A stretch of DNA of 51,906 nt, filler included, from Thelocarpon superellum (taxonomy: Eukaryota), in assembly GCA_026025795.1 (NCBI GenBank). It is 2 parts of 2 records of this genome, joined end to end, with 100 filler letters (N's around TTAATTAATTAA, not from the genome) between each part and the next. Parts side by side here need not be neighbours in the genome. Positions count along the whole stretch, not along the records: positions 1 to 25,939 come from JAPEUG010000261.1; 1 more part is not named here. One strand, written 5' to 3'. Numbering within the stretch: position 1 is the first letter of the stretch; every line of letters starts with the position of its first letter. Shown piece after piece: positions 2,586 to 26,039 of the stretch. The notes beneath the pieces were generated by a model. That model was not told where the DNA came from. It saw only the letters and a program-made list of their open reading frames with translations, and ran no database searches. Position numbers and translations under genes: made by a program.

Positions 2586-4302
2586 CTACCAGCCCTTTTG
2601 GTGGTATTCGCCGAGACCGTGATCGAAATAGTGGTTCCATGAATTATTTTTGGACGCATCCGTCGACTTCTGTCCGGGATAATCCTGGAGGTTGGCGACG
2701 TCGTGCGCCGTGTGGCGGCGCTTGAGCACGGCCGACGTATTTTTTTGCTGTCGCTCCCAGAGAAGGTGTCGGCGGAGGGACTCGGTCAGCTCGGTCGCGA
2801 GCATATTACGGCGGGTAGTGCGCGGCGACAGCGCGGGCGGGTGGGTATTGGAAGTGGTCACGATGATGGGTTTGGAATGGGGGATCCCTGGACTGCGAAG
2901 CTCGAGGGTCGTATCCTCCTCCTCGAACGAGGTCGCCATCGATGGACCATTGGGCGACGCGGTGCGTGATCGCTGCATGGCCGGCGTCGAGCGCGAGGCG
3001 GCATTGGCCAGCGCCGCGGCCCGCTGGGGCTGATGGAGGAGGTTGGTCAGCAGCGAGCGTCGCGACACCAGGTTCGGCTTGGAGTCGACGCGCTGGAACA
3101 TGGGCGCCTCGTCCACGCTGGACCGCGCACTCTCCTCGAGCGAATCTTCCCAGTCGGACGAGTCATCGTCCTCGATCGCGCTCTCCGACACCACGTCCTC
3201 GTCCTCGTCGGAGGTGAAGACATCCTCATCTTCGTTGAGTCCCTCGTTGATGGTGCGTGTCGTGACCTCGTCCTTGAATGATGTCTGCTTCTTGTGCGTC
3301 GCGGGTTGCTTGTGGAGTCCGTCGGTCAACGAGCTGCGTTGCGCCAGGTGAGGTTTCATGTGCTCGTCCAGCGAGTCTTCATCTTCTCCCGACGAGCCGC
3401 CGAGGAGAAACATGTTGCTCTTCTTGCGCGACTGCTCGGCCTTGGAGTGAACCGCCGGCGTCGGGATGGGGGCCGGCGCCAGTGTGGACTGGGACCGGTA
3501 GGAGGATGAACCTTGGCCGGGTGAGAAGCCGCGGACGACGCTGTGCGAGCTTGCCACTGAATGCGCGCTCTCGCCCGAGCCCACGGGTTGTGCGTTGTCT
3601 GTTACCTCGCCGGCACGGATTGTCACGGTCATGGGCTCGACGAGAGCAGTCATCGTTGGAGAGGATGGTCGCGGCGTTTCGTCGGCGGCGGTGTGGGAGG
3701 GGGTCGTGCCGAGGTCGATCGCCTTGGCGGCGGGTAAAGGTTGGAGTTCTTTGTTCTTCTTGATCGTAATGACCATCTTCTCGAGATCGTGTGAGGTGAT
3801 GTGCTTCTCGCGACCTCGACTTCGACTCTCCAGGGACTCCGCTATCCGTACGAATGGTTGAGAGATGTCGAGCGCGCCGGCTTGTCGGTCTACCTCGTCC
3901 TCTGTCGCCACGTGGGCCACCTCCTCGGACGAGGCTGAGTCCACGCTGGCCGAGAGAGACGGCATGTCGTCGGTCGTGTGTCGGGAGGAGACGCGGCCGA
4001 GGAGCGAGGGCGCGCTGGCCTGGGTCTGCGCGGAGCAGCAGAAGGTCTCGCGATTCCATAGCCGCCAGCTCAGGTTCTCTAATCGCCGGCCCTCCTCAAT
4101 CGATTCGGCGCACTTGGAGAAGACTATCGCGCACGCGAGATTAGATACATGCGCCCGTTGGGGCGTCACTGATGACCGGTGGCGATGAGAGGGGTGACGT
4201 ACTGGTCCACATGCTGAAGAGGTTCTCGACGTTGGTGGTGTCGACGGTGTGCATCTTGGCGGCGTCCACGGTGAGAACCGTGGCGGCCAGTCGGGAAGGC
4301 AT
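2586..4302 (-). CDS. DUF1752 (AreA-N-terminal-like 'RLENLSWR' motif) + DUF3295 fungal protein, 2 exons
   Basis: Exon 1 is 4302-4203 (MPSRLAATVLTVDAAKMHTVDTTNVENLFSMWT). Intron 4202-4124 has GTACGT donor, CTAAT branch and TAG acceptor. Exon 2 reads IFSKCAESIEEGRRLENLSWRLWNRETFCC, then an acidic 'ESAIEDDDSSDWED', 'FQRVDSKPNLVSRRSLLT', 'SPRTTRRNMLATELTESLRRHLLWERQQK' and ends YHQKGW, matching my recollection of this family. Confidence 0.85.
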
Positions 4303-4632
4303 GGTGAGGAGCGTTGCGCAGCGGTGGAGCGGCCGTGGATGGCCGATGCGCGGTGGTGGGGTGGAGGTGGGCGAGGGAAAGGAAGGTGGGAGGAGAAACG
4401 AGCGAACGGGAGGTTATGAGCGGCGAAGGCGGCCGGTCGAGGAATGGGCCAGGTATGTCGTGGGGCGAGAGCGCCCTTTACGCGACGGAATGGGCGGCGA
4501 GGGCGAGAACGGGCAGCGCCCGTGGGGAGGGCGAGACCGGCTGGGGAAGCGATGCGCGCCGCTTCCGTAAGCTGGGTCTGGGGGCGACCGACTGCACCGC
4601 GTCGCACACGGCTCAGCAGTGACGGTCGGGTG

Positions 4633-4682
4633 GCGGGTGCGGGTACGGGTGCGTGTGCGTGTGCGGGTGCGTGTGCGTGTGT
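4633..4682. repeat. (GTGCGG/GTGCGT)n hexamer microsatellite upstream of the DUF1752 gene
   Basis: About 8 imperfect units, read directly from the sequence. Confidence 0.85.
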
Positions 4683-5261
4683 TGGCCAACGCCGTGGCAC
4701 CGCAAGGTGAATCCAAAGAAGCAGCGGCAGACGGCTCACGTCCTCGCGAATCCGGCAACCTGGAAAGACTGTGTGCGGAGGAGGATGGAGGAGAGACAGT
4801 CCGACGCGGCGACGGGATACAAATATGAATGGAACAAGACAATCCGACTATCGATACTGGTACAGATGGGGGAGGCGCCTGGGTTATGTCGGAGACGGGA
4901 ATACCGCTCCGGCGGTACCCCTACAATGAATGGCTGCAGGCGGTGTCGGTTGGGGAAAGGGTGGGTAAGTAGTAGCCAGCACGAACAAGGGCACACGGCG
5001 TTTGCATGGGGCATGGGGGTGCGCATGGGGCACGGAGCATGGGGGGAACGGGGATGGGGGGCGGAGGAAGGCCGACCGGGCAGGGGGCCGTGGGCTCTAG
5101 AAGTCGCTGGTCGACGTGCCCATCATGCGCCCGCCGATAGGGTGGACACTTCACCCCAAGACCCTCCAGCCCTGGCCAACACGATCTGGATGCACGACTA
5201 CGAGTTTGGGGACACACTCGGCGCAGAAGGAACGCGTTGATGGCTTCAGCGACGGTCGGGG

Positions 5262-11846: not shown

Positions 11847-14800
11847 TCATCGTACGTGGGACCGCACATAGAACAACAGATAAGCCGCCTCGCTGGCGAC
11901 CCGTCGAGGATCGAAATTGGACGCGACCTTGTCGTTAAACTCCATCCAGTGCCCGCGTGTGTCCTCGCGTATCAACGCCTTGTAGTGTCCGCCTGTGAGC
12001 GTGCCGAAGTGCTGTACCACTGCATACGCGTCATATTCAAAAGGCGGCGAGCACTCGGGCAGCGGCGCGACTATCTCCGGACCAAACTTGCCTCGGGCAG
12101 TCTGCTCGTCCGCCGTGCCCATGGGTGGGAGGGTGTAGGGCCGCAGGTCGAGCCGGGTCAGAGGGAAGTCGATGAAGGCGTTGTTCTTGTCCGTAAAGCC
12201 GCGCCGGACGGAGCGGAAGCGCTTGAGCTGCAGCACCAGGATCTGAGGAGCGCGCGTGATGGTGATGCGCTTGCTGGCTTCGCGTGGCACCTTGCAATCG
12301 GGGCAGGTCCAACGATCCTCGGCGCTCAGCCGCTCTTCCTTCGTGTAGTTCTTCAAACAGTCGTAGATGTGCGCCCGGCCCTTCTTGGGGATCTCGAGCG
12401 AGATGGAGTTGAAGGTCTCGTAGGACGTGGACTGGAAGCCACATACCGGGCACCGGAGTCGACTCATGTGTTGCCCACTGAAAAGACTCGAGATCCACGA
12501 GAAGTTGGTCTGCGACCATCGATTCCATTCGATGCGGGACGCCACCTGCGGCGGGACGGCCTCCCTTTTCCGCTCCTCCGCCTCGGTCAGATTGGGCGGC
12601 CGTGGCCGGGCAAAGTTGACGTTGAGATCTTCATGCAAGGCATCGAGCAGGAAGACGAAGAAGTCGTTGGCGTCATGTTGCACGTTGGCGTTTTCAAAGT
12701 CCTTGTTAAGGCGCGAAACGAACTCCTAGATGGGGGTCAGCGGGCTCACATTTCTTGATCCTCGGAGCGCAACTCGAGCGCGACATACCCGGAACGTTTT
12801 GGGTGCGATATAGGTATACTCGCCGTGCCAGAGGTGCCACATCAGGCTGTGATAGACCTTGGGGAGGACCCCGTTGGAACCCCATTTATTCCGTTGGACC
12901 GCTCGCTGGTAGCCGCCATCAAGAAAGTATCTCGTCAAGGGCGCAGTGGCGCTCAAGCATTGGATGACGGCATTCATGTAGCAGGTCGCCCCGAAGTTGG
13001 TCAGTCCTGTGCGACTGATCTGCGCCGAATGACGCGCCGAGATGGCCTCGGCACCCGGAACCGCCGGGGCTGAGGTAGGCGGATACGCTTGTGCGCGTGC
13101 AGGGTAGGAGATCTTCTCCGACACACCGCCGTAGCTCTTTCGCGGGACCGACGGCGGAGGGCGGGAGGGGGTCTTTGGTACGAGCGAGCTGGGCTCGTAA
13201 GGAACATCCGGTGGTGGGTGGATCGGCTGCGGTGGGGACTGGATGCCAGTGAAGTTGTGGAAGGGATGGTCGATGATGGTGCTGGTGGTGCCGCGCGTCG
13301 ATGGCGGCGATACCATGGATTCCCTCACATCGGATGCCTCTGGGTAGCGGCGCAGGAAGTCGTCGTACGTCCGCACGAAGGACGCCTCGGCCTCGGCCTC
13401 GGCCTCGTCCGTGGCGGATGACGCCTGCCCCCGAAGGGGATGCGTGCGGGAGAGCACATCCGACCCGACGCGTGACACGCCCGGGCGTGATCGCACTCCA
13501 CCGTCACCCCGTACTCGCTCCAGCCAGGCGTTTTCTTCCTCCACATTGAGCGGCTCATGTTCGCGAAGTCGCCGCCGTGCCTCTAATCGCGGCGTAGTGC
13601 TCGCCTTCCCCATTCGCCCCAGCGGTCGACCGGATCGCTTGACCGTCGAGGGACTCTGTCGCCCATTGAGGCCAGCGGTGTCTGACGTCTGTAGCGCCTG
13701 TTCGCCCACCAGGTCCACCCATGCATCAAGGCCGCCAATGAGCGTGACGGGAGGCCGGCATAACGGCCGATCGTAGTTGAACTCCACGAGCGCCTGTCGG
13801 AGGCTGGGCAGGGTGGATCCGGTGGCGTTTTGGTCGTAATAGACGACCAAATCGAACTCATGACGCCACTCGAACAAGATCTGCTCGCTTTCAGGTGACA
13901 GCACGAGGCTTTCCCGCAGCTCGTCGGCTGAGATATCAGGCCGCAAGGCAATGGGCTCGATGCAGATGATGGATTGGGCGAAAATGTGGCCTTCATCAAA
14001 TTGCGGCCGCAGACGCACGTCTATGAACAGAATACTGAGCTGGTCCGAACCGCGCTTGAGGTATTCATGGAGATCATGCACCGTGATAGCGGATGCTTGC
14101 GGCAGGTGCACGTCGGAATGCCGCTGAGATGGCGGCCCCGTGGTCCGATCCGACGAGTAGGACTGTGGCCCGGTGCCCGCCGTGGGCATGGAGCTGGGTC
14201 GTCCACTTGCCCCGGCGATGCTGCGTGCTGTCGTTCGAGGTGGGTCTATGCTCGCCGGACCGGGAAGGTTACGTGCAGGGCTGTACGTCGGACTGGGCTG
14301 TCTCGGCATGGATGCGAGTAGATTTGGGGCGGGTAGCGGGAGCTTCGGCGGGTGCGGTGGCCCCGTTGGCGAGGGTGGCGGCATGTTTCGAGGACCAGCT
14401 GGTCGATTGGCCAAGCTCATGGTCGTGGGCGCGGAGACCACGGGGGTCAAGTGCGGCAGCGACGTGACGGATGAAGCAGGCGTGTCGTCAGACCACGGCC
14501 GGCCATCCGTCGAGAGAGCCTTGTGACGGCCCGAGCTGGATGAGCCTGGTCGACTGTGCGAGGGCTCCAGACGCCCATCGGGATTCGGCTGCGGCGTCGG
14601 GCTCCTTGGAATGTCCAATGTTCGTAATCTCGCAAATCGCTCCGCTAGGGGGTCCGCCGGGCCGGGGGGCACGGGATGGTTGGGAACTCCATTGATCTGC
14701 AGGGTTCGACCGTGGAGATTGTCAGGCTTGCGATGAATAGGCGGTCTTTCATGGGACGCCTGCAAGCGTGATGTGTGTTCTTGGCCGTAGGAAGGGGGTG

Positions 14801-15482
14801 CCTCGGACGGGTGGTGCTGGGCAGAGTCGTCGGATAGGGACACGCCCGGCGTCGGTGAGGCCAATGCCTCCCTGACGGGGCGAGGGGTTGGCGACAGCGA
14901 TCTCGCCTGGTCTCGAGAAAAGGTTGGCCGGACGCCACTGCGTAGATTATCATCCTTGATCATCTCCCGCACGGCACCGAACTTGTCGTGCTGGGCATTT
15001 ATCCGCTTCTGGAGGGCCTTGTTCAAGTTCCAGAGCTCGCCATGGGAGGTACTCAGTGAAGGAAAGTCCTTGTGTCGGGGAACCAGCTCGACGACGATGG
15101 TAGATGCAGTCAAGAATTCGGTATAGGCCAGGTCTGGCCGTCGGAAGTCGAGGTGGGTGTCAGCTTGCTTTGCACAGATATCGGCCTTGTGCAACAGCGC
15201 TCTCATCTGAGCGGCCGGGTTAGCGCAGTTTCTGATGGTCTATTCGGAGTAAGCCTCTCCCACCGGGGCATGAAGATCAAGATCCGGGGTCGATCTTGCC
15301 ACCAGGTCGTCGAGATGAGGATACCGCTTGGCCGTTCGGCCCGGCCCGCCTGGTGACACTGAGCCGCCCCAATATGTCTGTCCTCGCGTGGCCGCGGCAT
15401 TGTTTCCTGCTGTGGCATGCCCGCTTATCATCGAGTGGGTGGGCGGGTTCGTTGGTGGACCGGCAGGGGACGAGACACTCAT
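11847..15482 (-). CDS. DOA4: Ubiquitin carboxyl-terminal hydrolase Doa4/Ubp4-like (USP8 family; rhodanese + USP domain), 3 exons
   Basis: Exons 15482-15264, 15206-12789 and 12725-11847 with GT-AG introns. Rhodanese-like 'ILFIDVRLRPQFDEGHIFAQSIICIEP'; Cys box 'TGLTNFGATCYMNAVIQCL'; 'QHDANDFFVFLLDALHEDLN'; Zn ribbon CPVC...CPDC; His box 'YAVVQHFGTLTGGHYKA'; 'AYLLFY'. Confidence 0.92.
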
Positions 15483-16394: not shown

Positions 16395-18956
16395 ATGATG
16401 GCCGGATGGTTCGCCTCCAACTCGGCGCTGGACGAGCAGATCGAGCGCGCCACCTCGTCGAGTCTGTAGGTGGATCCGAGCGACCATGTAAATGCGCGGC
16501 ACGTTGAGACTGATGGCCTGCGCAGGGAGGATATCGCTCTTAGCTTGGAAATCTCCGATGTCATTCGATCGAAGAGCGTCCAGCCCAAGGAGGCGATGAG
16601 GTCGCTCAAACGCCGATTAGGCAACAAGAATCCCAATGTCCAGCTCGCCGCGCTGAAGGTATCCCCCCCATCCTAACATGATATCCCACCCTTAGTGTGG
16701 TTGCTCTTGTTGCTGATCACCCATCTAGCTGACGGACACCTGTGTTAAGAATGGCGGATCGCATTTCTTGGCTGAGATTGCCTCAAGAGAGTTCATGGAC
16801 AATCTCGTCTCCCTGCTGAAGGCCTACGGAGGGGCAGCAGTCAATGACGACGTCAAGAACAAGATCCTAGAGCTTGTCCAGACCTGGGCCACGGCGACCG
16901 AGGGCCGACCGGACCTCTCATACGTCGGCGAAACATACCGAGAGCTACAACGCGACGGCTTCCGCTTCCCCCCCAAGGTCGAGATATTGAGCAGCATGTT
17001 GGACAGTAGTGCCGTGAGTTCCCACCTAGCATCGAGAGGTGACAAATGGCCGGCAACATACTGATCCGATGCGGACCACTAGCCGCCAGAATGGACGGAC
17101 TCAGATGTGTGCATGCGATGCCGGAATGCCTTCAGCTTCACGAACCGCAAACATCACTGCCGCAACTGCGGCAACGTCTTCTGCGGCTCCTGTTCCAGCA
17201 AGACCATCCCCCTACCACATCTGGGTATCGTGCAACCGGTCCGCGTCGATGACGGCTGCTATGCCCGGCTGATGGACAAGTCCCGCACGGGTTCCGCGCC
17301 CCTCGAGCGGCCCAGCAATCGCTCCTACTCCACCCCCCGGTCACGTCCCATCTCGTCCATGCAACCGCGCGACGCTCGAATAGATGACGGCTTTGACGAG
17401 GACCTGAAGAAGGCGCTAGAGATGAGTCTCGACGAGGTCCGGGGTCACTCGGGCGCGGGCTATGTGCCGCAGTCCCAGCTACCGTCCCACCGTGTGCAAC
17501 CGAGCAATCCGGCGCCGTCCAAGTCGCCGATGCCCAAGGTCGAGGAAGAGGAAGAGGACAGCGAGCTGAAGGCCGCCATCGCTGCCTCACTGGCCGACAT
17601 GGAGGAGCAAAAGAAGAAGCATGCGGCGACGCTGAAGCAACAGGCGAGCAAGAATTCAGGGCCCTCATCCAAGATCATGCCCAAAAACGATTATGCCTTG
17701 ACCCCAGTCGAGGCCGAGAACATCAATCTCTTCTCGACCCTGGTCGAACGACTGCAGAATCAGCCTCCAGGCACAATTCTGCGAGAGCCGCAGATCCAAG
17801 AGCTCTACGAGAGCATCGGCGCGCTGCGGCCCAAGCTTGCACGGACCTACGGCGAGACGATGAGCAAACATGGTCGGTGTCAGTCGATGGAGTGAGAATC
17901 GATGTGATGTTGACTTTGTCAGATACCCTACTCGATTTGCACGCGAAACTTTCAACCGTCGTGCGATACTACGACCGGATGCTGGAAGAGCGACTCACCA
18001 ATACCTACAGTCAGCAGAGTCTCGGTGGCTATGTCAACACCAATCGAGCCAGGCCGACATCGTCCAGCATGTACCCATCCTTGCCTTCCGCCACACCGCA
18101 AGGTCCGGGCGGGGCCGAAAGCTTCTACACCGGTAACAATGCGACGGTCGGGCCGGACGCTTACGGCCCTTCCGGCCCTGTCCCCTACTCCGAGTACCCA
18201 CCCGTGAGCCAGGACTTCCGGGAACGACCTTCTGCCGCGATGCCGTATGGCCCACCACCCCGACGTGAACCTCAACCTGCACCATATTATGGCCATGTCC
18301 CTCCGCAAGATACCGACGCTCCTCCTGCGCAAGTGTCGCCCATACAATCTCATCGTGCGAGCTATTCCGCCGAGTACCGGGCGCCATCGCAACCACCAGT
18401 ACAAGCTCCCGCCGGCCCACCACAAGCGCCCTCGCAGCCGTCCATGGCCTCGCCGCCCGTCGACGCGGCTGCGGCATACTATTATGACAACGCGATCAAG
18501 CCGCTCCCAACCTCCTCTCCGCCGGCGCAGCCTAGCCAGCCAGATGCACAGGGCGCGCGACATCTCCCACTGCAGCAATCTCCGCAGCAGTATCACCATG
18601 CCCCGCCCGTTCAACAGCAAGTTCCCCCTTCTCACCAGCAACAAGCGCCACCCCCAGCGCAGGCGATCCCGCAGTATCAGGTAGCACCCCCCGCACCGGC
18701 GCCAGTGGCCGCGCAAGCCGCTCCTCCCCCACAACAGCCTCAATACTGGGCCCCTGTACAGTCTGCCCCGGCTCAAGCGCATGCACCTCCGGCCCGTCAA
18801 GCCATGCCACTGCCCGCACAGCCATCATATGCACAACCTACGTACGCGGGTTACACGCCGGACTCCTTCCCCAGCGCACCGCATCATCAACCACAGATAG
18901 CGGCAGTGCCGCTGCCGACGCCGCAGCCAGTAGAGGAGAGTCTCATTGATCTTTGA
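16395..18956 (+). CDS. VPS27: Vacuolar protein sorting-associated protein 27 (ESCRT-0; VHS-FYVE-UIM-UIM-GAT), multi-exon
   Basis: Starts [27 protein letters not shown] '[33 protein letters not shown]'; FYVE '[25 protein letters not shown]'; UIMs '[12 protein letters not shown]' and '[12 protein letters not shown]'; PSAP motif; C-terminal clathrin box 'SLIDL'. Confidence 0.95.
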
Positions 18957-19245: not shown

Positions 19246-21118
19246 CTACCGCTGAGTTCTTCTCCGCTCTTGTTGCTGCTGCTGCTGCGGGCCCTGGTCT
19301 TGCGGCTGTGGCTGGGACTGCGCTGATGCCTGTCCCTGTCCCTGTCCCTGTCCCTGCTGTTGATTCTGCTGTTGTTCCTGCTGTCCCTGAGCTTGGCCCT
19401 GAGCTTGGCCCTGCGCCTGACCCTGTGCTTGCCCCTGAGCTTGCCCCTGTGCCAGCGCTAGTGCCTTGATCTGCTCGGCCTGCTCCTTCTCCGCCTGTTC
19501 CTTCTCGGCCTGCGCCTTGGCCTTGGCGTGGGCCGCCTCTTCCCGGGACACGGCGGCCACTACTTCAGTGATCAAGCGACGACACTCCTGGGTGGAGGCC
19601 TCTATCTTCTCGTCCTCGTGCGGCACAGACATGAGCAACGCGCGCAGCTGGTCCGTCTCGGCATTTAGCTCGCTCGTGAAGGAGGCCGCGCGCGCATCGC
19701 TCGATACTCGCTCCGCGTCCAAAATCGCCTTGTGCCCTTCTTTCAACATCGTGCGTCGTGCTTCGTTGGTGAGCTTTTGGAGGTGCTCTTCTGTCTGGTG
19801 TTTTGGGACTGGGGTCAGCATTGTGAGAATGGGGTGGGTTGTGTGAATGAGTGTACCTCTCTCAGATCGTCCATTGCGCGGGAGATGGCTTTTTCATCGA
19901 GGGTCTCGTCGCAGGTGGTGCGGAGGTGCTCGAGCTTCGTCTCCATCTCCTGCGTTTCGTCATCGCTCAGTCGGCCATGCACGCGTTTCGATTGCGCCTC
20001 CACGGTCTCGATGAGCTGCAGCGCGTCTTCGATCTTGTCTGACAAGATCTTCCGGTGGCTGTCGAGCTCGGCGTGCTTCATGATCCAGAAGTCGGCGATC
20101 TCGCCCGGGTAGGAGGTCTGTACGAGATCCAGCTCCCACTCCGGCAGGTGGTCCTGCGCTACATTAGACCAGTAGATGGCCCGGTCTTGCTTGTTGCCTT
20201 GCCCGGCAAAGTGCACCAACATGTCGCCGCGTCGGACTTGGTAGGGACTGATAGTCTCGTTCAGGAAGCCCGAGTCATAGGCATTGAACCAGCGCTGCGG
20301 ATACTGCATCGCGTTCCGCTTGAATCGGTCTTCGTTGAGGAGCTCCGACATGGCTGTCTGCTCAGCAAAAGCCAACTGCTGTTTGGGGCGGTAGGTACGA
20401 AAGGCCAGGACGGCGGACATCATCTCGATCGACCACCAGTTGACACGGATGAAAAATACGCCGGCATTCAGTCCGTTCCAGTCTTTGGCGTATAGGAGAT
20501 GGATGTGGTCAAAGTCTGAGGGCGGAAAGAAGACGTTCAAGGGGATTTTGGGATTGACAATCACGGTGTCGGCATCATACCAGCTGAATCTGGTCAGCGG
20601 TGGGCACCGGGTAGTGGGGGGCTCACGTACAATAGCCACTGCAGGCGTCGCTCCTCGGGTTTCTTCATCTCGTCCATCAATAGCCCGAGCAAGTACGCCG
20701 GCTTATTCCAGATCCCATCCACAATCTCTTCCCGGAGCACGAAGTACGCGTAATCATGTTTCTGCGCATGATACCGATGCGACTCGAGGGCCTTTTCGTA
20801 CGCGGCGTTGGTCTTGCCATAGAGCACAGTCACCTTGCCCGCGGAGGGACGTAGAGGGGGGGGTAGGGTGTTCGAAGGTTCAGCCGCGAGTGGAGCAGAT
20901 GTCGACGCCGACGCCGAGCTTATCGCCAGCGACGAGACTCCATCGGCGGATGACTCGGCATCCGACAGACCAAAGGTCCATTCGGCCACGGAGGAACCCA
21001 GTGCCAACGTGTGACGGTAATGTTCGGACGAAGTTCGACGGAATAATGAATAGGCGATGAGGGAGCATGCCAGAAGCACGCAGACCCCGCGAAACAGTAG
21101 AGAGCGATATGAAGCCAT
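19246..21118 (-). CDS. Glycosyltransferase family 34 (Gma12/Mnn10-like) with coiled-coil and Gln/Gly-rich C-terminal tail, 3 exons
   Basis: Type II N-terminal TM anchor (GVCVLLACSLIAYSLF); 'YEKALESHRYHAQKHDY', 'GIWNKPAYLL'. Splicing intron 20630-20584 gives 'QWLFWYDADTVIVNP' (DxD). Then 'DWNGLNAGVFFIR', 'FAEQTAM', 'PQRWFNAY', 'GDMLVHFAG'. A second intron near 19856-19797 leads to the QG-repeat tail. Confidence 0.88.
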
Positions 21119-22893
21119 GGATGACTACCATAAGGCCGTGCGAGGCCCAGCGCACGAATTTGGAGACGATGAAGAACGGCCCGACATGGGCGTTGAGGTG
21201 CGAGGGGGAGGTCCGAACGACGACGTATGTCTTCCGGCACTGACTGGACAGCGTCTGCATAGCAAAAGATCGGTAACACTACGGTGTAGACATGGAGCCA
21301 TGTCTACGGTCACCTACTATTCGCCCAGCCCTTGTCAGGGACAAGGCGAAGGCGAGGGCGTGGGCGAGGGCGGGGGCGAGGGCGATGCGCGCGGCGTACT
21401 CCGTACGAAACGAGGACCCCTCTCGCTCCGAGACCGCCGGATGTGCATGGCACCTTGGCTTGGGGTGGGAAAAAAATGGGACCGGTCGGGCACACCGTCT
21501 GGGGAGCGCAGGGCAAGCATGACGACACTGGACCAGATGGTGATTCTACGGTGGCATCGCCCCGACCACCGAGGAGCCCGACTGTTCGAAAAGTCCACGG
21601 AATGTGCTCTAGTCAGATATGCAGGGAGGTCGTCGTACCTAGCCCCTCCCTTCGTACCCCTACGAGGACGAGTACCGAGGGTGACGCCGCTCCACCTTGT
21701 ACCTTGCCAGAAGCCAGGGCGGGTACAAGTAGCTCTCGTTGCCCACCAAGCAGACTTCCTGTCGTCGCACGGACTTCTTGGCCGCCGTGCTGCCGACACA
21801 TTATCTCTGGTCGACGCTGGTGGCTGGAATGCCCCTGACGGGACCCTAAATTCCACTGGTCTCAAGCAACGAATCGCCACCGACCACGGTACTACCGCTC
21901 GCACCGTGTGGGGCGGCACTCTGTGCTCGTACGAGGATGCCTTTCTCGTACCAGGCGTCAACAGATGAGGCCGTGCTCGGTATATGGTCACCGATCCGAT
22001 CTGGCTGTGGGCAGCGCTGACGCTCCTTCCGATCGGTTGGTGCGATGGGGTGCGGGCAGCGGTGGTGCAAGGACCTGATCTTGGCCATGGCTGCATCACT
22101 GGCGTCTCGCTTCTTGCCGGGACCAGCGCCGGCTTAGGCAGGTCCCTCACCGAGCCTACAGTAGTGAGCAGCAGCTTACCAGCAAACATCAGTAGGGCTG
22201 CTCCCCTCCCCCAGGCACCGAGCAGTTAGCGACGTGCCAAGCCCCGCGCCAGTGCAAGCTTCGCCGACGAGGACGCGTAGAGTAGACAGGCCGACCGGGG
22301 AGCGCGCGTTCCCGAAGGTTGGGATTTGACGACGGGTAAACTGGCCGGAGAAATTATCCATCTTCGCTACCAGACTCGTTGGCGTGCGGCTTGCGATCTG
22401 CTCGCGGCTTCGGTCTCTGCGGCTGGATGCGGGAACTATGTTACCCCCATCCTCTCCACCTTGCTGGCTTCTCCACCGTCCCTGACTCGATTGGTTTGGT
22501 CCAAGATCACATCGCAATCATCATCGGCCCTTTGTGCCACCACATTCACACATCTGGTTGAGCGGCGGCCCCAGACACCATTACGGTCGCGCCACGACTA
22601 AGGGGGAGCAAGGGCAGGCGTCGCGTCAGCCCCGAGATGAACCCTCTCGCAGGGGGCCGGAATGTAAGTCGAGCTGCTGAGATTGACCCACCACCTCCGC
22701 CACATCGTCGTGGCCGTCCGCCCTCCCATCGAGTCAGGCTGATGAAGCGGCCCTGCGCACAGCTCAGCTCCGGTCTTGCTGACCCATCGCCCTTTCCCAC
22801 GCGCCGCGCGCCCTAGCACTTCTTTTCCCTCGACATTCCCCCGGAGCTGCCCCATCCCCGCCGCTCATCCCCGGATCCTTTCCCCGCTCCACC

Positions 22894-25388
22894 ATGGGCA
22901 TTGACGAGCTTCCACGGGAGTATGACGACGATACGGAAGCGTCCAATGATCAGTCCGCCCTCGCCTCTCCCATTGACCTCCAGACGGAGAAGCCCAGACC
23001 TGGCCGGAGTGCCATCCATCCCGCCATCTTCATCGTGTGCGTCCCCAAATCTGTCTCCCTACCCAAGCAGAGACGCCAACCGGCCCATGAGAGGCACTGA
23101 CGCGGGAGGGACGTAGGATTTGGATTTTGCTCAGCTCCGGCGTCATCATCTACAATAAATGGATCTTGGATCGTTTCCGTAAGTGACCTGAACCATGCGC
23201 CTCGCTCTGATGCACTGGAAGACGGGCTGGCTAACGTGAGACAGGATTCCGTATGCTCCTGGAGTTGGGCATAGTCCATGGGCCCGTACTGATGAGTTCA
23301 CAGCCATTACGCTCACAACATGCCATCTTGCCTTTTCCACCCTCGCCACCCAGGTGCTGGCCAAGACGACGACGCTGCTCGATGGCCGAAAGCGCGTCAA
23401 GATGACCCGACGGGTCTTCTTCCGGGCCGTCCTGCCCATTGGTTTGTGCTTCAGCTTGAGCTTGGTCCTGAGCAATGAGACCTATCTCTACCTGAGCCTG
23501 GCTTTCATCCAGATGCTAAAGGTACTGTCGCCGCCCGACGCGCATCTCCCATGCCCTGACGGTGGATGGAATAGGCCGCCACCCCCGTCGCCGTGCTCTT
23601 CGCCACGTGGAGCCTCGGCCTCACTCAGCCGAACGTCAAGGTCCTAATGACCGTGACTGTCATCGTCATTGGCGTCATGATTTCGTCCTATGGCGAGATT
23701 CGATTCGTCCTGTTTGGCTTCCTCATTCAAAGTGGAGGCGTGGCGTTTGAAGCCATGCGGTTAGCGCTCATGCAATATCTGCTCAGCTCTGAGGAGTGCC
23801 AGATGGATCCTCTTGTCTCACTCTACTACTTTGCCCCCGTCTGCACCGCCTTCAACATTCTCTTCGGCTTGATCCGGGAGGCTCCGCATCTGCACCTCTC
23901 CGATGTGGCGCATGTGGGCTTCTTCGTCTTGCTCTCCAATGCTGCCTTGGCCTTTGCCCTGAACGTGGCGCAGGTCTTTGTGGTATGTGACGTCCGTGGC
24001 GCCAAGAGGATCGGGCTCTAACCTTTGGATAGATTGGGAAGACATCGTCCTTGGTGCTGTGTCTTTGCGGGATCCCGAAGGCGATCATGCTGGTCGTTGC
24101 TTCCATGCTCTTTTGGGGGACGCCCGTGACGCTCTTACAGCTCTTTGGATTCAGCATCGCCACCGCAGGCTTGGTGCATTATACGCGGCTAGGATCGCAG
24201 AAGTCGAACGGCAAGCCGACGAATACTTTGGACGATGACGACTGGGAGATGACAGTGTCGAAATTCGGGCTCTGGCGGCTTCGAAGTACGACGATTTGCC
24301 GGTCGATTGCCGTCATTGTGGGTGCTATCCTCATCTCAACGATGTTGTGGATTCGCAATCCCAACATGATGCAGCTTGGTCGCCCTCTGGCAGGGGGCAA
24401 TGGTCCGCGCCGGGCCTTTGCGACGCTCTTGACGGGCCAGGGCGACAATGATGATGACAACGACGATCCTTACTTTGTCGGCACCCGTGTCGTCGCGTAC
24501 CAGCTCCTCCACGCGGCGGAAACGCGGTCTTTGAGCGACATTTCCTTTCTCGTTCTCGTCACGGCCAAGGTTTCGGCAAGCAAATGCGACCGACTAGCTC
24601 GGGACGGAGCGACGATCGTGCCCGTGGAATCGGTTGACGCGCCGGAATGGGCGCGGCCGGGCAATGACAGGTGGTCTCAGGCGTATACGAAACTACGTCT
24701 CTTTGAGCTGGTGGAATTTGAGAAGATTGTCTATCTCGACTCGGACATGCTGTTGACCCGACCGCTGGACGGGATCATGGACGACGTCACAACAAACCCC
24801 ACGCGCACCTTGACGATGGCCAATCAGACCAAGCCCGAGGAAGCCGATTTACCATCCAGCTATCTCTTCGCCGGCAGTCCGGAGACCTACTCCACAGACC
24901 ACTCCTACCCACCGGACGACAGGGGCTATCTGAACGGTGGCTTCTTCGTCGTGGGCCCCTCCCTCGCCCTGTTCGATTATTACATTTCCCTCCTCTCCAA
25001 CCCCGGCACATTCGACGCGAGCTTTGCCGAGCAGAATCTGCTGAACTACGCGCATCGCCGCGAGGGCAACATGCCCTGGACGCGTCTCTCACCGGAATGG
25101 AACATCAACTTTGCCACAATGAAGGACCTCGAGCGCGGTGTGGCGAGCCTGCACGATAAATTCTGGACGCCATTGGATGCCGAGCTGGGCAACCTGTGGT
25201 TCAAGATCCGTTGGGAGATGGAAGGCTTTTATCAGGCCCTGGAAGAGGGTGGCGCTGCTGCTGGTGATGGTGCTGGCGAGGTCGAGGGCGGTGACCCGGG
25301 CTTGTCTTTCATCGCGGGTGAGCTGGGCCCAGAGGGGGACTCACCTGCCTCACCGCCCATCCTTCCGCCTGCTCCTCCCTCGCCTTAA
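22894..25388 (+). CDS. Nucleotide-sugar transporter (TPT family, GlfB/UgtA-like) fused to a C-terminal GT8 glycosyltransferase domain
   Basis: Spliced transporter: HPAIFIV-IWILLSSGVIIYNKWIL-FRFPITLTTCHLAF, 'TTTLLDGRKRVKMT', 'YLYLSLAFIQMLKAATPVAVL', 'MDPLVSLYYFAPVC', 'IGKTSSLVLCLCGIPK'. The last exon continues without a stop through an extra TM helix into GT8 motifs 'AFATLL...YFVGTRVVAYQLLH', 'KLRLFELVEFEKIVYLDSDMLL', 'YLNGGFFV', 'FAEQNLLNY', 'SLHDKFW'. Confidence 0.85.
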
Positions 25389-25939: not shown

Positions 25940-26039
25940 NNNNNNNNNNNNNNNNNNNNNNNNNNNNNNNNNNNNNNNNNNNNTTAATTAATTAANNNNN
26001 NNNNNNNNNNNNNNNNNNNNNNNNNNNNNNNNNNNNNNN
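25940..26039. other. Artificial contig-joining spacer N44-TTAATTAATTAA-N44
   Basis: Symmetric N runs flank TTAATTAATTAA (25984-25995), which has stops in all six frames. This is a typical concatenation linker. Confidence 0.95.

Follow-up and report, generated by a model that had tools for sequence, protein, structure and literature searches.

A UgtA/GlfB-type nucleotide-sugar transporter and a GT8 glycosyltransferase joined in one reading frame in Thelocarpon

Background

Nucleotide-sugar transporters of solved structure swap a nucleotide sugar for a nucleoside monophosphate, and how nucleotide sugars are delivered to the right Golgi transferase is still debated. Import of the activated sugar and its transfer are normally the work of separate proteins. 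In K. lactis a transporter gene and a transferase gene are reported to be adjacent. Mammalian transporters form non-covalent complexes with transferases, SLC35A2 with UGT8 and B4GalT1/4 and SLC35A2/A3 with Mgat1-5, and a coupling of transport and glycan synthesis is proposed for them in the accessible text of PMC9368800. In this paper we analyse a stretch of 51,906 nucleotides from the lichen-related fungus Thelocarpon superellum (assembly GCA_026025795.1; the window), in which a gene at 22894-25388 on the plus strand encodes a UgtA/GlfB-type transporter followed, in the same frame, by a glycosyltransferase family 8 (GT8) domain. The transporter would be held beside a transferase as in the mammalian complexes; there, however, the partners are separate proteins and the transporters belong to another subfamily, whereas in Thelocarpon a covalent bond, laid down in the gene itself, joins the two.

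Among relatives of solved structure, Vrg4 and the cytidine monophosphate (CMP)-sialic acid transporter have ten transmembrane helices, with both termini cytosolic. UgtA/GlfB of Aspergillus is given, in the accessible text of PMC4630932, as the sole nucleotide-sugar transporter predicted to have 11 helices, the added one being C-terminal at 358-378; the shorter paralogue UgtB is described there as lacking the eleventh helix, and an A. niger strain deleted for both ugtA and ugtB is described as well. UgtA/GlfB is a stand-alone protein of about 400 amino acids (aa) and shares with the fused protein the TPT core and an eleventh helix at the same position. Behind helix 11 it has its own tail of about 23 residues, whereas the fused protein instead has 345 aa of stem, GT8 domain and tail.

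Members of GT8, GntA among them, are retaining enzymes that depend on Mn. The Gnt1/Gnt2 type of fungal Golgi GT8 enzyme, which includes ScGnt1 and F. oxysporum Gnt2, is treated in the accessible text of PMC3886883, and GntA is identified as a glycosylinositol phosphorylceramide (GIPC) N-acetylglucosamine (GlcNAc) transferase in that of PMC5954224. We liken ScGnt1, FoGnt2 and A. fumigatus GntA to the fused GT8 domain by description only. Stand-alone fungal type II Golgi GT8 proteins are 39-51% identical to it over the catalytic domain, share the DxD and H-x-K-x-W motifs and, like the fusion, have a helix shortly before the domain. In the stand-alone proteins this helix is the N-terminal signal anchor of a 330-400 aa protein, whereas in the fusion it is transporter helix 11; and while a Gnt-type protein (about 330-450 aa) has a single N-terminal anchor, here a complete transporter of about 330 aa precedes the helix. 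Glycogenin and the Skp1 alpha-galactosyltransferase have the same fold as the fused GT8 domain at about 23-25% identity, and the motif F-D..(D/E)-Q-x-L-N aligns. Those two enzymes, however, are soluble and cytosolic and use uridine diphosphate (UDP)-glucose (Glc) or UDP-galactose (Gal), whereas the fused GT8 domain is membrane-tethered and predicted to be luminal.

We consider it likely that the locus is a real, selected gene fusion which yields one Golgi membrane protein. Both domains are of known kinds; the fusion architecture and its tie to the eleventh helix are new.

Gene structure and reading frame

The gene has six exons (22894-23036, 23117-23178, 23245-23250, 23304-23521, 23575-23982 and 24033-25388, all on the plus strand) and, from ATG to stop, specifies a product of 730 aa. 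Its five introns are all GT-AG and are 50-80 nucleotides (nt) long, and the spliced translation is identical to a deposited 730-aa protein, 'hypothetical protein M1838_002385 [Thelocarpon superellum]' (P0001). The last exon provides 451 codons without an internal stop; each of the other two forward frames has 12 stops. A preliminary description of the locus had placed the fusion within one exon, where it would not depend on a guessed intron, and the open frame and the identity of the model with P0001 bear this out. The strings quoted in that description (IGKTSSLV...GFSIATAGLVHY, SIAVIVGAILISTMLWI, YLDSD and WEMTVSK) are all found in the frame of 24033-25388.

The Pfam check that had been proposed for the spliced model returned both domains above cutoff. 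Whole P0001 matches TPT (PF03151) with 77.1 bits (cutoff 30) at residues 44-329, over profile positions 4-290 of 291, and GT8 (PF01501) with 25.2 bits (cutoff 24.3) at residues 423-642. With the last exon alone, GT8 scores 26.9 bits at residues 144-363, and residues 5-50 align to the closing stretch of TPT (profile positions 245-290 of 291).

The third exon is a micro-exon of 6 nt, GATTCC (23245-23250), which together with the last base of exon 2 encodes Arg-Phe and restores the family motif F-R-F-P. A model without it has 728 aa and lacks the Arg-Phe at a place where the relatives show FRFP or FRYP; the model that contains it is P0001. The micro-exon is flanked by introns of 66 and 53 nt and is easily overlooked by eye or by gene finders.

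In the linker between the two halves the GC content at third codon positions is 0.64-0.74, against 0.44-0.51 at second positions, which matches the rest of the last exon. An intron within the linker was considered and rejected: the sole GT..AG candidates begin at 24318, have no branch-site match and would remove helix 11.

Independent copies of the junction

Contigs from two runs of another study, on moss metagenomes, served as independent evidence (record 12 of run X2 and records 20-22 of run X3). The X2 record and the overlapping X3 records tile 24063-24590 free of gaps, with no indel at the junction. A contig from run X1 spans 22600-25018 without a difference from the window; it possibly comes from the source sample and hence was excluded as independent evidence. 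Between the window and the metagenome contigs there are 11 differences, 4 of them non-coding and 7 coding. Six of the seven coding differences, 4 of them in the transporter and 2 in GT8, alter third positions of the proposed frame without changing the amino acid, and the comparison thus indicates that purifying selection acts on this frame. The sole non-synonymous difference falls in the low-complexity C-terminal tail.

Recurrence and rarity

The same layout is found in a 715-aa protein of Thelocarpon impressellum (P0003). A third form, P0002, is a 405-aa piece of open reading frame (ORF) on a 3.4-Mb contig of the European Nucleotide Archive (ENA); it starts within transporter helix 10 and continues through linker, helix and GT8. 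Both are 49-51% identical to the last exon of the window, and the frame is retained although the linker is scarcely conserved. No Met occurs in P0002 from helix 10 to helix 11, so an anchored GT8 protein could not have a start of its own there. A tree drawn from 38 GT8 domains places the fused three together (Shimodaira-Hasegawa-like approximate likelihood ratio test [SH-aLRT] 92), which suggests a single origin of the GT8 fusion.

An architecture search for TPT plus GT8 proteins had been proposed, and when run it gave three fused proteins among the matches listed. The last exon found 203 proteins at E <= 0.001, and among the best 120 of the 203, which were examined, only P0001, P0002 and P0003 cover 86-100% of it. 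The other 117 listed matches are 272-486 aa long and cover 54-74%, that is, the GT8 part plus an N-terminal helix of their own. A search of proteins of 401-1278 aa with query residues 280-700 gave 18 matches at E <= 1e-10, in which the fused forms are the same three only; P0392, with 86% coverage in this second search, was considered as a further fusion and rejected as a stand-alone protein with a long N-terminal tail. An exhaustive search of representatives returned no match to both halves among the best 150 listed. Joint Genome Institute (JGI) metagenome contigs scanned with the three fused proteins gave 12 loci, and in all of them the match to the query begins at residue 86 or later; when the 12 were compared with P0001 and GlfB by tblastn, GT8 matches alone came up and no further fused locus was found. 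No transporter lies upstream of the metagenome GT8 genes in the flanks of L001 (about 2.9 kb) or L002 (about 2.6 kb). The fused proteins are present in public databases as hypothetical proteins, one of them with both Pfam domains precomputed. No description of a natural fusion of a nucleotide-sugar transporter with a glycosyltransferase was found in the full-text literature, a coverage that leaves out subscription-only papers.

Linker, eleventh helix and topology

Between helices 10 and 11 lies a linker (P0001 330-364; 24183-24287, plus strand) which is predicted to be cytosolic, is modelled with a low predicted local distance difference test score (pLDDT) and has few conserved columns. The eleventh transmembrane helix follows at P0001 365-387 (24288-24356, plus strand) and is a helix in the AlphaFold2 model, at last-exon residues 86-108. 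A hydropathy scan places the final helix at 366-384 in P0001, 377-395 in P0003, 359-377 in the stand-alone GlfB P0153 and 367-385 in P0241; in all four it lies 47-59 residues past the core. To compare a descent of the helix from the transporter with one from a GT8 signal anchor, linker and helix were aligned locally to eight UgtA/GlfB tails and to ten GT8 N-termini; z ranged from -1.4 to 4.2 on both sides.

Two claims of the preliminary description fail at this point. It had taken the C-terminus of the transporter family to be cytosolic; UgtA/GlfB is predicted to have 11 helices (PMC4630932, accessible text), and its C-terminus is for that reason already predicted to be luminal. It had also regarded the helix before the GT8 domain as an addition, but stand-alone GlfB P0153 has its equivalent at the same place. 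The helix is therefore a family trait, and the fusion lengthens a tail that would already be luminal. The placing of the GT8 domain in the lumen agrees with the expected topology, with eleven helices ahead of it, and by analogy with these relatives the domain is expected on the luminal side.

Transporter domain

The TPT/nucleotide-sugar transporter core (P0001 44-329; PF03151, 77.1 bits) occupies 23023-24182 on the plus strand and is interrupted by introns. Relatives were searched among proteins of at most 400 aa, and the transporter half is 53-61% identical, over 88-98% of its length, to the 120 UgtA/GlfB-type matches listed. Several of these are named as UDP-galf or UDP-galactofuranose (Galf) transporters, and A. 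fumigatus P0153 is 60% identical, so the resemblance to the UgtA/GlfB UDP-Galf transporters that had been claimed is upheld.

Within this family the Thelocarpon transporter is divergent. The preliminary description had stated, without an alignment, that GVLKD is replaced by GIPKA; now aligned, the change is real, with G-I-P-K-A at P0001 292-296 (24069-24083, plus strand) where the stand-alone UgtA/GlfB proteins have G-V-L-K-D. P0001 departs from the residues that are invariant in the subfamily, G-V-L-K-D included. Of the 184 columns whose conservation across the 120 relatives reaches 95% or more, 34 are altered in both full-length fused proteins, P0001 and P0003, including V293I, L294P and D296A, and the mean identity is 0.73 among the relatives (400 random pairs) vs 0.52 to P0001; as the 120 are top matches only, both comparisons are biased toward close canonical forms. 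K295 of G-x-x-K is invariant in 38 sequences (alignment A7), and we take this conserved Lys to have a role in substrate binding. Change at the family-invariant sites fits a shift in specificity after the fusion, as far as sequence can tell.

The phylogeny against GlfB/UgtA that had been suggested was also run. A quick tree of 52 rows was poorly resolved, with many long branches, and a careful, unrooted tree of 24 rows was used instead. In the latter the Thelocarpon pair is a clade (100/100) whose stem measures 0.78 changes per site; the pair falls inside the Pezizomycotina-type UgtA group (99/92), where it stands beside Geoglossum, Tuber and the crown UgtA/GlfB clade in an order that the tree does not resolve.

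GT8 domain

The GT8 catalytic domain has a GT-A fold and lies at last-exon residues 127-412, equivalent to P0001 406-691 (24411-25268, plus strand). An AlphaFold2 model of the last exon was built from 96 aligned sequences and has a mean pLDDT of 82, mostly >90 in the catalytic domain. The best Foldseek match of this model is human glycogenin-1 (3t7n_B, E 1.7e-12); VIA-align gives glycogenin-1 a Z of 22.6 (root-mean-square deviation 2.8 over 223 residues), the Skp1 alpha-galactosyltransferase 6mw5 a Z of 22.2 and LgtC a Z of 19.1.

The metal and nucleotide-sugar motif D-S-D, the DxD of YLDSD, lies at 24738-24746 (plus strand; D236 and D238 in last-exon numbering) and aligns with D-A-D of glycogenin. 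Across 96 GT8 relatives D238 is invariant and D236 nearly so. His374 of H-D-K-F-W (25152-25154, plus strand), presumably the second metal ligand as in GT8 enzymes, is conserved among the relatives; H374, K376 and W378 are each at least 90% conserved in the 96. Across 93 stand-alone relatives, 55 columns reach a conservation of 90% or more, and the GT8 domains of P0001, P0002 and P0003 retain 53, 52 and 51 of these columns, respectively. The earlier reading of a complete GT8 domain with its DxD motif is confirmed by the 53 of 55 columns, the presence of both DxD and His and the fold match at Z 22.6.

From helix 11 to the first GT8 strand there are only about 20 residues, and the catalytic domain would therefore lie close to the membrane, as in the stand-alone relatives. 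The protein ends in a low-complexity tail rich in Gly, Ala and Pro (25269-25385, plus strand; pLDDT 41-62), which is absent from the relatives. Some of the GT8 relatives are named 'alpha-N-acetylglucosamine transferase', 'glycosyltransferase family 8' or 'meiotically up-regulated protein', and these are database names only.

Other domains joined to UgtA-like transporters

Pfam was run on 13 of the longer matches from the representative search. Seven have a UgtA-like transporter with a C-terminal DUF3431 (PF11913) domain (P0244, P0248, P0251, P0252, P0254, P0255 and P0379), two have an N-terminal GT32-type domain followed by the transporter (P0279 and P0326), and one has a transporter with a short-chain dehydrogenase (P0298). 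The remaining three showed the transporter only (P0259), GT8 only (P0384) or no family (P0308). In P0279 (Aspergillus nanangensis, 752 aa) and P0326 (1426 aa) the order is reversed, with a GT32-type 'Gly_transf_sug' domain before TPT; each is the sole member of its cluster, and either may be a product of merged gene models. Chytrids (Dinochytrium, Irineochytrium and Geranomyces) and Tuberaceae (Tuber magnatum, T. brumale and Choiromyces) are the sources of the DUF3431 fusions, which are uncharacterised database entries and retain the eleventh helix. P0395-P0398 are also UgtA-like 11-helix transporters with DUF3431. The DUF3431 proteins thus have the same transporter family, helix 11 and a C-terminal domain in common with the Thelocarpon fusion, but the partner domain differs.

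DUF3431 itself is essentially unstudied; it occurs in four papers, and the three of them listed name it 1-5 times each in passing. An AlphaFold2 model of P0396 was built from 11 sequences (pLDDT 71 on average and about 80-90 within the domain) and searched against about 48,000 chains. Ranks 1-8 are transporters, matched on residues 1-311, and ranks 9-50 are nearly all GT-A nucleotide-sugar enzymes, matched on residues 390-630. The DUF3431 model gives a Z of 10.0 with dolichyl-phosphate mannose synthase, 9.9 with ArnC and 8.1 with A. fumigatus GfsA. These middling values (Z 8-10) provide a lead, from a model, that DUF3431 may have a GT-A fold. Comparison of DUF3431 with GT8 profiles detected no relation (hhalign probability 2.3%), and a link from DUF3431 to DUF4422 in the Atlas (score 0.85, 15% share) was rejected as too weak.

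The region behind helix 11 in P0259 (Synchytrium microbalum, 668 aa) is an unrelated domain, about 300 aa long and without a Pfam match. Its Atlas model resembles viral hypothetical proteins at template modelling (TM) scores of 0.78-0.88 and GT2-type clusters at 0.53-0.71. Three partner types are found behind helix 11: DUF3431 in chytrids and truffles, a GT-A-like domain in Synchytrium and GT8 in Thelocarpon. In the 24-row transporter tree, which is unrooted and thinly sampled, DUF3431-fused forms stand on both sides of the main split, and because of this fusion to a luminal enzyme may be old in the UgtA-like family; on that hypothesis the helix 11 of stand-alone members may be a relic. The wider proposal, that helix 11 is an adaptor for a luminal glycosyltransferase, that covalent units of this kind are old and recurrent in fungi and that stand-alone UgtA/GlfB is a truncated descendant, is speculative and in our judgement rather unlikely.

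Discussion

In the working that we propose for the fused protein, the N-terminal half would be a UgtA/GlfB-type transporter with a ten-helix core and a cytosolic N-terminus, a topology taken from solved relatives in the literature. The family's own helix 11 would carry the chain across the Golgi membrane into the lumen, where, after a stem of about 20 residues, an intact glycogenin-like GT8 domain would sit on the luminal face beside the transporter. The transporter would trade a cytosolic UDP-sugar for luminal uridine monophosphate (UMP), and the tethered GT8 domain would add an alpha-linked sugar from the UDP-sugar to an acceptor near the membrane, either a glycolipid or a mannan/glycoprotein. 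The fusion would in this way fix a 1:1 ratio and the co-location of sugar supply and use. The topology and the candidate sugars of the fused protein are proposed from its relatives. Kinship of the transporter makes UDP-Galf a candidate sugar, the names of the GT8 relatives make UDP-GlcNAc another, and the structural neighbours of the modelled GT8 domain suggest UDP-Glc or UDP-Gal. If it is true that the Thelocarpon transporter still carries UDP-Galf, the retaining GT8 domain would make alpha-galactofuranosides, an activity to which, to our knowledge, no enzyme is assigned.

Several points weigh against a single working protein of this kind. Both one transcript with one polypeptide and the transport, transfer and coupling ascribed to it are what we infer from the gene. 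The fusion is carried by only three genomes, and two of the proteins are automatic models from metagenome-assembled genomes. The margin of the GT8 domain over its Pfam cutoff is narrow (25.2-26.9 vs 24.3). The near-invariant positions lost from the transporter in both full-length proteins, taken with its long stem, could mean that transporter function is changed or weakened. Finally, the Met of WEMTVSK in P0001 and a Met in P0003 stand about 15-20 residues before helix 11, and an internal start that gives an ordinary type II GT8 protein is possible in both. This last point is the basis of an explanation in which one locus makes two products, a transporter and a type II GT8 protein, each on its own. 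An internal promoter, an internal start codon or early polyadenylation would keep the two apart, and the common frame would be merely tolerated. A product from that Met would resemble a stand-alone GT8 protein, with a short basic tail, an anchor and the catalytic domain. A tolerated frame, however, would hardly be maintained in three genomes at about 50% divergence across a scarcely conserved linker; P0002 has no Met at which a second product could begin, the third-position GC content of the linker is coding-like, and no gene model of stand-alone length for these loci appears among the protein-search matches. We therefore regard two separate products as improbable. An artefactual join, whether through chimeric assembly, a frameshift in the sequencing or models merged in annotation, could be suspected since the sequence comes from a metagenome-assembled genome and only 552 nt separate the gene from a contig end; with the junction inside a single exon, tiled over 24063-24590 in two runs of another study and present again in two other genomes, such an origin can hardly be entertained.

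A more serious alternative accepts the fused protein but denies that its halves work together: the transporter would serve inverting Galf-transferases, GT8 would use another donor, and the fusion would have arisen by accident as the genome was compacted, doing no more than bring two Golgi proteins to the same place. GT8 is a retaining family, whereas the accessible part of the literature describes fungal Galf as beta-linked; the transporter lies within the Pezizomycotina UgtA group (99/92); and the names of the stand-alone GT8 relatives, as names only, point to a UDP-GlcNAc donor. On the other hand, the strong divergence of the transporter (stem 0.78, 34/184 sites) is compatible with a new task after the fusion, and the recurrent joining of the same transporter family to GT-A-like domains argues for a functional reason. 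On balance we think a fusion without coupling possible though not probable, and it is the alternative that we take most seriously.

A natural, conserved single-chain transporter-transferase would offer a test case for the delivery of nucleotide sugars, one in which coupling could be measured with the two halves joined and apart, and which would bring a structure of both within reach. The fusion also supplies the only rationale so far for the odd helix number of UgtA/GlfB, which is unique among described transporters. The GT8 fusion is taxonomically narrow (three Thelocarpon-type genomes); what is seen in chytrids and truffles hints at a principle of wider reach.

Genomic neighbourhood

The preliminary description had reported no UDP-galactopyranose mutase gene beside the fusion gene, and in agreement with it no match to that family was found among 55/61 ORFs of at least 130 aa on the 25.9-kb contig. 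This contig, from which the deposited P0001 also comes, is 25,939 nt long and forms the first part of the window. At 25940-26039 two runs of N around the spacer TTAATTAATTAA mark the join of separate contigs, and sequence past 25939 is therefore not physically linked to the fusion gene. A GT34 (GMA12/MNN10-type) glycosyltransferase exon lies at 19815-20702 on the minus strand, probably extending upstream to about 21300 (PF05637, 52.3 bits). The GT34 gene precedes the fusion gene by about 2.2 kb and is read from the other strand, and the two, both Golgi glycosylation genes, may share a divergent promoter region. Other neighbours on the contig are of ordinary kinds: a DUF3295/AreA-GATA-like protein (2586-4847, minus strand), a ubiquitin hydrolase with a rhodanese domain (11847-15239, minus strand) and a Vps27-like FYVE/UIM protein (17083-18956, plus strand).

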